Made by a program: the position numbers and the translations under genes. Of a stretch of DNA of 64,000 nt, positions 46,278 to 46,930 are shown in pieces (position 1 is the stretch's first letter; every line of letters begins with the position of its first letter). This DNA is from an uncultured delta proteobacterium (lineage in GTDB: Bacteria; Myxococcota_A; Polyangia; Polyangiales; B10-G4): positions 256,001 through 320,000 of the forward strand of contig CAVSGI010000021.1 in NCBI GenBank assembly GCA_963727445.1, written 5' to 3'. A model generated the notes under the pieces. That model had not been told where the DNA came from. It ran no database searches and saw nothing but the letters and a program-made list of their open reading frames with translations.

Positions 46278-46298
46278 CGGGTGCGCGCACCTTAGCAG

Positions 46299-46828
46299 GT
46301 TAATTGTGCTCAGGGGCTTCGCCGTAATTGTGCTCAGGGGCTTCGCCGTAATTGTGCTCGGTGCTCAGGGGCTTCGCCCCTGAGGACCCCAGGGGGCTAC
46401 GCCCCCTTGTCGGCCGCATGGAAGCGGCCTCTCACGTCTGCCCGCCCAGTGTGGAACAGATGGGCTCGCTGCACTTCATGGCAACGAACTGATGGTCTAC
46501 GGGCAGCGTTCGGACCCCCACTCGGCGCCTGCGGCGCCGGGTCGCGGCCTGCGGCCGCTCCGGGGTGTTGGCTAACGTCGTGTCCTCGAGCCGGTCACCT
46601 GGACGGAGTGGAGCGTTGCGAAGCAACGCGACCCGGGCGCCGTCAGGCGCCCGAGAAGGGGGGACGAACGCTGCCCGTAGAGGTCCCGGCGAATTCGAGA
46701 GCGACCCTCTGAGTCAGTCTCAACCACTTCAGACGGGCAGACGTGAGAGCGAGCGCGAAGCGCGAGCGACACGGGGGAATCCTTTCCCCCGGGGGTCCTC
46801 AGGGGCGAAGCCCCTGAGCACAATTAAC
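46299..46828. mobile_element. Non-coding long palindromic element (MITE/REPIN-like) with TTAA-capped terminal inverted repeats
   Basis: Perfect 25-bp IR 46299-46323 / 46804-46828; nested perfect IRs 46361-46390 / 46792-46821, 46429-46444 / 46734-46749, 46496-46512 / 46665-46681. Mobility is inferred. Confidence 0.7.
46301..46359 (+). repeat. 24-bp tandem repeat (two full copies plus a partial one)
   Basis: TAATTGTGCTCAGGGGCTTCGCCG at 46301 and 46325; TAATTGTGCTC at 46349. Confidence 0.9.
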
Positions 46829-46829
46829 A

Positions 46830-46854
46830 ATGCCCCGGGCAAAGCCCGGGGCAT
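46830..46854 (-). terminator. Probable intrinsic terminator of the DUF2330 gene
   Basis: ATGCCCCGGGC-AAA-GCCCGGGGCAT perfect 11-bp stem, followed on the - strand by TGTTAATT. Confidence 0.65.
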
Positions 46855-46930
46855 CTGGGATGGAACGATTGTCTGTCTTGTTTGGGAACGGTCTCACGTG
46901 GCCTCGCCTCTCGGCGAAGCCGCGCGAGCT

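Follow-up and report, generated by a model that had tools for sequence, protein, structure and literature searches.

The element under study is a 530-base, gene-less segment at positions 46299–46828 of the window, by which we mean the whole 64,000-nucleotide stretch that was analyzed. It lies on contig C21 of a 9.5-Mb genome (G000) with a GC content of 69% and a completeness of 86%, which by its gene content is probably that of a myxobacterium. The segment is located between the 3′ end of a DUF2330 gene (PF10092; 46931–48181, minus strand) and the start of a gene for an ArsA-family ATPase (PF02374; 45354–46277, minus strand), immediately behind a terminator-like hairpin (46829–46855, minus strand). 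This hairpin belongs to the host: it stands 3′ of the DUF2330 gene, its T tail enters the element end, and a GC-rich hairpin is likewise present in the empty spacer of relatives. At the opposite border, TAAGGT (46289–46294, minus strand) is the putative −10 box of the arsA-like gene and is also part of the host rather than of the element; the same hexamer is found just 5′ of the gene start in two of the three syntenic relatives.

The DUF2330–arsA spacer measures 653 nt here, versus 116, 96, and 125 nt (by our count) in all three syntenic relatives. These three were found among 11 arsA loci of relatives, in which the DUF2330 gene is upstream in the same order in three cases, inverted in one, and absent from the fetched flank in seven. 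A contig of the short-read run X3 links both flanking genes across about 130 nt, corresponding to a spacer without the element. Because spacers of 96–125 nt in the relatives and of about 130 nt in X3 stand against 653 nt here, the 530-base non-coding element is an insertion. The first-pass annotation of this DNA had proposed a comparison of the arsA–DUF2330 region in relatives, and the empty site is present in each of the three that are syntenic.

Architecture of the insertion

The insertion is an inverted doublet of two related units, denoted L and R. Inverted, diverged arms sharing identical blocks of 30, 16, and 17 bp had been described at the outset, and each block was located exactly twice in the window, in inverted orientation: the 30-bp block at 46361–46390 and 46792–46821, the 16-bp block at 46429–46444 and 46734–46749, and the 17-bp block at 46496–46512 and 46665–46681. 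In a global alignment, the two arms are 69% identical (151 of 220 columns), i.e., 31% different. The terminal 25-mers (46299–46323 and 46804–46828) form inverted ends that are 100% identical in this copy. They contain TTAA, which is seen four times in the window against about 38 occurrences expected from base composition, two of the four being the element ends. The first-pass annotation had pointed to this 25-mer, with its rare TTAA, as the common outer end; the description holds for both ends of the present copy, but the left 25-mer starts a series of tandem duplications, and TTAA is not conserved at the other unit ends of the family. The duplications are partial copies of the left end of 24, 24, and 12 nt (46301–46360, plus strand), located at 46301–46324 and 46325–46348 and followed by a truncated third copy, and a like pattern is seen at the junctions of TIR clusters described below. 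Since the left 25-mer is the first of these tandem partial end duplications, the L unit proper begins at 46361.

The L-type unit (46361–46560, plus strand) comprises a terminal hairpin, two further hairpins, a core stem with a 51-nt loop, and two inner hairpins. The 5′ side of the core stem is an invariant block with a bulged T (46429–46444, plus strand), followed by the L-type loop insert (46445–46495, plus strand) and the invariant 3′ core block (46496–46512, plus strand). The R-type unit (46611–46827, minus strand) has the same scaffold with a 52-nt loop at 46682–46733. The insert previously taken to be variable and about 55 nt long is really 51 and 52 nt in the two arms, and each version belongs to a conserved type. 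Between the units lies a mosaic center (46561–46590, plus strand), in which a reversed piece of an L-type end module (46562–46571) is fused to GGCTAAC (46570–46576). This heptamer flanks the TIR doublets associated with the family; it occurs 65 times in the genome, 26 of them immediately before GGG. GGCTAAC at the element center may be what a TIR doublet left behind, as a footprint, or a site that such a doublet would target.

Copies, types and distribution of the unit family

Units of ~210 nt are found at 14 loci in this genome, which are intergenic, have unrelated neighbors, and mostly lie at gene 3′ ends. A motif search counted 15 units with a complete core, and nhmmer returned 20 matches. 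The core-stem loop falls into two fixed-length types, with L always 51 nt and R 52–53 nt, and the identity between L and R is 97% in the core blocks, 72% in the scaffold, and 35% in the loops. All six doublets (6/6) are inverted L+R pairs. A copy count had been suggested by the first-pass annotation, which listed a non-autonomous, REPIN-like mobile element among its candidates; the 14 loci and the inverted L+R doublets support that candidate.

Inverted unit pairs in multiple extragenic copies are the arrangement of REPINs and BIMEs, and the 6/6 doublets and 14 intergenic loci agree with it. The single unit departs from known REP sequences in size and tag. It is about 210 nt long, against 20–60 nt for REPs and REPINs. 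A GTAG-tagged REP has a conserved GTAG 5′ of its hairpin foot, whereas no more than 5 of the 15 cores contain this tetramer, and there it sits on the loop-facing side of the stem. A CGTC-tagged REP combines its tag with an 8–9 bp stem, a 4–5 nt loop, and a CCA tail; here, CGTC stands before the core stem in 13 of the 15 units, but the loop measures 51–53 nt. The ends are variable: other copies end in TCAA, CTAA, or CGAA or have no motif, with TTAA not conserved, many of these ends are one-sided or extended by further hairpin modules, and many copies are truncated.

Pieces of L and R, with 87–96% identity, occur in contigs of two independent short-read runs from other studies, and two metagenome contigs carry a third loop type together with a compensatory change in the core stem. 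These contigs bear on the concern that long-read assembly created the structure by fold-back or slippage, an artefact that had been considered improbable from the beginning and is now barely credible. The assembly does consist of few contigs, and the tandem end duplications are located at a hairpin, but the arms differ from each other by 31%, and both unit pieces and unit–TIR junctions recur in the contigs of the two other studies and in the two metagenome contigs. Because L and R pieces occur in two independent runs, an artefact is ruled out for the units; the independent contigs cover the units, not the 24-nt end duplications.

The family appears to be confined to a narrow range. An exact-pattern scan with the strict core pattern yielded no match in the species-genome collection, and none was found in an exact-pattern scan of viral contigs. 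A DNA search of 60 relatives gave short module matches only, and a covariance model run over 100 relatives gave only two partial matches. A second exact pattern had one match in the species-genome collection, which lies inside a gene and was judged to be due to chance. We found no description of the ~210-nt unit family in the literature; related motifs may be present among the repeats listed in the supplements to PMC3733652 and PMC6006769. Two roles for the loops were considered and rejected. As for guides or spacers, BLAST of the element gave no loop match outside the family, and the loops fall into two types. As for peptide coding, the R loops are open in one frame, but their lengths vary by 1 nt, and the L loops contain stops.

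A second repeat family of the genome, family B, consists of tandem ~210-nt units whose end and inner hairpin modules are as in the family studied here (family A) and whose core is different. Its loci in G000 are C21:133.7k, C15:196k and 86k, C10:1215k, C9:580k, 629k, and 774k, and C16:46k. In the metagenome contig L036, a B unit is paired in inversion with an A unit.

Folding and the one-strand loop rule

As single-stranded DNA, the region folds with a z-score of −16.3 (0/100 shuffles). Across the aligned units, pairing is kept in 95% of cells, compared with 39–52% in slid controls, and 7 of 38 pairs are changed on both sides, a covariation that derives largely from the single L/R split. The earlier observation that structure is kept while sequence varies is thus substantiated.

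The hairpin tips show a strict strand polarity. In 14 aligned units, 37 of 65 triloops on the unit strand are C-TNC-G and one is C-GNA-G, with a genome background of 3.5% for each; the 65 triloops include overlapping alternative pairings, and the unit copies are related. On the complementary strand, the triloops read GAA (22), GCA (10), GGA (4), and GTA (1), i.e., all four GNA kinds, and the same strand has six GNNA tetraloops, including the non-GNRA forms GCCA, GTCA, GTTA, and GACA. The tips match the rule for GCGNAGC/GCGNNAGC DNA mini-hairpins (C-GNA-G, one strand only), which according to the accessible part of PMC13037366 are far stabler as DNA than as RNA. In this copy, the GNA loops are on the minus strand in the L unit and on the plus strand in the R unit (46613–29, 46634–53, 46753–63, and 46798–818), and in the doublet each strand bears GNA tips in its own 3′ half. 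Folding energies barely separate the strands, the mean difference being −1.7 kcal/mol for DNA and −4.2 kcal/mol for RNA, both in favor of the GNA strand. Since nearest-neighbor energies hardly discriminate, the argument for a DNA fold rests on the loop rule.

These findings suggest that the unit folds as DNA rather than as RNA. The first-pass annotation had left the choice between ssDNA and RNA folding; the ssDNA part of that claim is supported, and the RNA part conflicts with the DNA-type loop rule. Its further proposal of a rod-like or two-domain non-coding RNA fares accordingly, as does the broader idea that each unit is a multiplied structured non-coding RNA or an mRNA 3′ stabilizer. Covarying stems, the location at gene 3′ ends, and RNA folding energies that are strong too would all suit an RNA, but this explanation is unlikely because the loop tips follow the DNA mini-hairpin rule. 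The tetraloops include non-GNRA kinds, the other strand would present UNC triloops rather than UUCG tetraloops, and the doublets are inverted. A search of Rfam gave four matches, the best with 18.8 bits against a gathering score of 42 and the best E value being 0.38. With only two partial matches in the 100 relatives, the family is also too lineage-restricted and mosaic for a housekeeping RNA. Spread of the units by a reverse transcriptase, as retro-copied sequences of the msDNA kind, is most improbable. One-strand DNA-type hairpins would suit a cDNA, the genome has one reverse transcriptase gene, and msDNA-like repeats are reported for Nannocystis, according to titles cited in PMC6868368; against this, the flanks of the reverse transcriptase gene have no BLAST match to any unit locus, its contig contains no units, and neither the inverted doublets nor the nesting of TIRs is explained.

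GCGNAGC and C-GNA-G tips on one strand liken the units to the DNA mini-hairpins of ssDNA priming sites and N4 promoters (PMC13037366, in part), from which the present element differs in being chromosomal, repeated, without a replicon, and known from sequence alone. Other repeat families of 100–280 nt in this genome share the loop polarity, and one of them also shares the end and inner modules. In G023, three arrays contain 45 TNC-type loops versus one GNA-type loop, and single units in G002 and G005 are uninformative or mixed in polarity. The hairpin-arm architecture is common to several repeat families, and the sequence is not.

Tandem arrays of ~100–130-nt units with a common GCANTCCCGGC-like motif and one-strand TNC loops are also present in G000, mostly between convergent genes (C2:91.7k; C6:79k, 364k, and 441k; C17:141k; C21:569k and 672k; C25:58.6k; C27:265k and 329k). 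At locus L081 (G005:C51:27.8k), an analogous unit lies directly behind two tRNA-like genes and one SRP-RNA-like gene (identified by eye), converging on an apparent frameshifted four-helix-bundle gene.

The L loop contains an IHF-like sequence (46481–46493, minus strand) that matches the consensus WATCARxxxxTTR (PMC3897727, in part) at 8 of 9 specified positions. Agreement at 8/9 is seen in five of the six distinct L loops; the four free positions all vary, and the specified ones change once. The R loops are mostly devoid of a match. The motif was noticed post hoc, with a shuffle p of 0.029. The genome has four genes of the IHF/HU family, and IHF sites are known in the linkers of E. coli BIME-1 (PMC3333891) and in Correia elements (PMC2229807), as far as the accessible parts of these sources go. 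We regard the putative IHF site of the L loop as a lead.

TIR association and candidate mobilizing enzymes

A TIR repeat with 176 copies in 55 clusters lies inside or adjoins 8 of the 14 unit loci and is absent from the other six, including this copy. The arms flank 13 of 20 TIR doublets of one spacer lineage but none of the 17 doublets outside that lineage and none of the 18 singles (Fisher p = 2e-5, treating related copies as independent), and this arm-bearing lineage is the largest doublet group. The independent short-read run X1 also contains unit–TIR junctions, in the form of loose ends, and in L036 a TIR-like end abuts a unit arm. Seven of the 8 positions of the GGGG[AT][CG]A[CG] consensus are matched by the nested repeat, copies of which stand on either side of a Y1 gene with an HTH tail (C9:566.8–567.6 kb); inverted TIR-like ends are found at 24 of 30 homologous Y1 loci of the order (by our count). 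The nested repeat is a TIR of the TIRYT/subclass 2.1 kind, as defined in the accessible parts of PMC3733652 and PMC6006769. Within the same parts, Di Nocera et al. describe REP dimers inside longer palindromes (PMC3733652), and we found no description of GNA-hairpin arms around TIR doublets (PMC3733652, PMC6006769). The unit itself is not a TIR of the GGGG[AT][CG]A[CG] type, and such a TIR is absent from the window.

The TIR-flanked Y1 gene (C9:566.6–567.6k) is split by a frameshift between the catalytic domain and the HTH tail, a call made at the level of the assembly. An intact paralogue lies at C10:487.6k, with a TIR family of 66 copies of its own, and an intact natural homologue is present in G001. 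A separate observation concerns 29 host genes of G000 that border the TIR family at their 3′ ends (for instance, C9:566.1–566.3 kb) and are synonymously recoded over their last ~80 codons. Relative to 2722 control ORFs, fourfold sites have C at 0.72–0.83 versus 0.50–0.55, and NAR codons have A at 0.45 versus 0.17–0.19; the effect fades by 120 codons. The trend is also seen in five genes beside family B, is weak beside the ~210-nt unit family, and is not apparent at this copy.

A second Y1 gene (C9:168.5–169.2 kb) is surrounded by 150-nt inverted repeats that the terminal module of the unit resembles, and its closest homologue, in G023, has an analogous hairpin-unit array directly upstream. Homologues of this gene were tallied in 32 of 201 genomes, including G122, on which none of the present conclusions relies. 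The clade is multi-copy, with 9 to 14 or more matches per genome in G002, G030, G048, G056, G070, G084, G115, and others, unlike RAYTs, which are typically single-copy, and its motifs are near, without matching, class 3 of PMC6006769. A comparison of a 12-mer hairpin motif with Y1 presence across the 201 genomes was discarded, the count being too noisy against the control.

As first noted, the window contains no mobilizing enzyme. A copy flanking a transposase, HUH, or RAYT gene had been suggested as a target of the search, and here the outcome was negative: the unit core flanks none of the four Y1 genes of this 86% complete genome, one of which lies at C10:985.5 kb, the nearest Y1 gene being about 67 kb from any locus, and the covariance model detected no unit beside 30 + 30 homologous Y1 loci. 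An IS91/ISCR end or an Ssn repeat would have an adjacent Y2 transposase or GIY-YIG gene; matches to Y2 (seven) and GIY-YIG (two) are not adjacent, and even the nearest is more than 450 kb away from each of the 14 loci. A search for DUF559 gave no match, none of 16 four-helix-bundle matches is adjacent (nearest, 34 kb), and neither a second TIR family nor a third REP family is associated with the unit (0 of 14 loci each). We infer the mobilizer, since no enzyme gene flanked by a unit was found.

Considering these results together, the insertion is likely a REPIN/BIME-like non-autonomous ssDNA element, an elaborate version of REP/BIME repeats. We consider it probable, with some reserve, that a Y1 (HUH) transposase acting in trans cuts and re-joins this gene-less, multi-copy insertion, which is predicted to fold as ssDNA, in the manner of REPINs and BIMEs. 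It is set apart from the standard REPIN/BIME because the unit lacks the REP tag and size and its cognate gene is a candidate. The likeness to the BIME-1 and atypical BIMEs of E. coli with TnpA-REP, as described in the accessible part of PMC3333891, lies in the inverted heterodimer of related palindromic units, the intergenic position, the mosaic modules, an IHF site (here IHF-like) in or between units, and one active arm per strand. By comparison, a BIME unit measures 30–40 nt, whereas the unit here has ~210 nt and five or six hairpins, no GTAG foot, an IHF-like site in the loop of just one of the two units, a rule that places GNA loops on one strand, and no unit-flanked REPtron (PMC3333891). 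REPINs with RAYT, according to part of PMC3116915, similarly form an inverted doublet that amounts to a long hairpin, with dispersed copies, tandem expansions, and unrelated repeats nested in them; they number in the hundreds, against 14 loci here, and the arms here are long and diverged with only candidates for the cognate gene.

In the proposed mechanism, the element would be exposed as a single strand, fold, and be nicked and re-joined by a Y1 enzyme of loose cleavage specificity, for which the invariant bulged core stem may serve as the protein-recognition site. The difference between the L and R loops would limit full-length snap-back and leave one active arm per strand. Loose cleavage and strand transfer at a distance could produce the truncations, module swaps, and end duplications; in vitro, cleavage at a distance and recombination of BIMEs are known for TnpA-REP, which can also capture flanking sequence (PMC3333891, in part). 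The likeliest enzyme would be that of the TIR-flanked Y1 gene on C9 (566.8–567.6 kb), working on composites of arms and a TIR doublet, and the second candidate is the Y1 gene at C9:168.5–169.2 kb. This copy would then have lost its central TIR doublet or not yet gained it. Since TIRs are absent from 6 of the 14 loci, the arms may instead be an independent element that was entered once by one TIR lineage.

A classical MITE that has terminal inverted repeats of 25 bp, a TA/TTAA duplication, and an internal IHF site as in Correia elements, and that a DDE transposase moves as dsDNA, is an unlikely alternative to movement by a Y1 enzyme. Perfect 25-nt inverted ends, the GTTAAC that remains after excision in silico, and the IHF-like site speak in its favor, as bacterial MITEs with TA ends and IHF sites are known (PMC2229807, in part). 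GTTAAC is compatible with a TA/TTAA duplication or with none, so the target duplication anticipated at the outset fits this copy; it does not extend to the TCAA, CTAA, CGAA, or motif-less ends of other copies, many of which are one-sided or extended by hairpin modules. No transposase-like ORF was recognized by eye next to the BLAST matches of the ends, and a DDE enzyme would leave the one-strand loop rule unexplained. In the accessible part of PMC2229807, Correia/NEMIS, RUP, and YPAL resemble the element in being non-coding with inverted ends, TA at the ends (in this copy), and an IHF-like motif, and YPAL further in its GC richness and insertion beside a dyad symmetry. The element differs from them in its varying ends, its length of over 500 nt, and the lack of a recognized matching IS.

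The restriction of the arms to one TIR lineage admits another reading, in which they are functional ssi/Frpo-like signals, landing sites for primase or RNA polymerase that let an excised TIR doublet become double-stranded or amplified; one TIR lineage would then carry arms because these act as single-strand signals. We hold this to be rather doubtful. Mini-hairpins are known from N4 promoters and from the priming sites of G4 and RSF1010, and SSB binds them poorly (PMC13037366, in part); the polarity is strictly one-stranded, the arm-bearing lineage forms the largest doublet group, and analogous arms flank another REP array of the genome. On the other hand, no sigma-70-like promoter was found in the region, the arms are absent around the 30 TIR-flanked Y1 genes, and many copies are truncated.

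Building on transposition by a Y1 enzyme, we tentatively suggest a wider possibility, to which we attach limited confidence: mini-hairpin arms could be accessory modules gained by HUH-moved repeats, which would supply priming or loading signals and an IHF bend in one arm, give a replication advantage to a TIR/REP lineage, and have several origins in the order, with the architecture in common and the sequence not. If so, non-autonomous ssDNA elements would gain a new tier, and REPIN/TIR copying in vivo a natural test bed. The family bears on how REP-class repeats are copied in the cell and on the TIR/TIRYT branch, for which it supplies defined substrates: a core stem that does not vary, loops of two fixed types, the one-strand rule, nested TIR junctions, and two candidate Y1 enzymes in one genome. 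Arms acting as priming or loading signals would show how such parasites finish their cycle; otherwise, this is another elaborate intergenic repeat, of local interest for the terminators and promoters at its insertion sites.

Long inverted arms of polarized hairpins also flank tandem arrays of another REP in G000 (C4:22.4–23.7k, C12:177.9–179.5k, and C8:480.3–481.5k). This REP has 286 motif matches, counted over both strands, and the arms are similar to the inverted repeats that enclose the Y1 gene at C9:168.5k. Finally, a convergent pair of four-helix-bundle genes (PF05635) occurs in five copies in G000 (C25:75.8k, C6:405.3k, C27:289.6k, C14:396.3k, and C14:127.9k), with six further single copies and no reverse transcriptase gene near the pairs. 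In the three pairs that were viewed, a hairpin lies over each start, and hexamer microsatellites are located outside.
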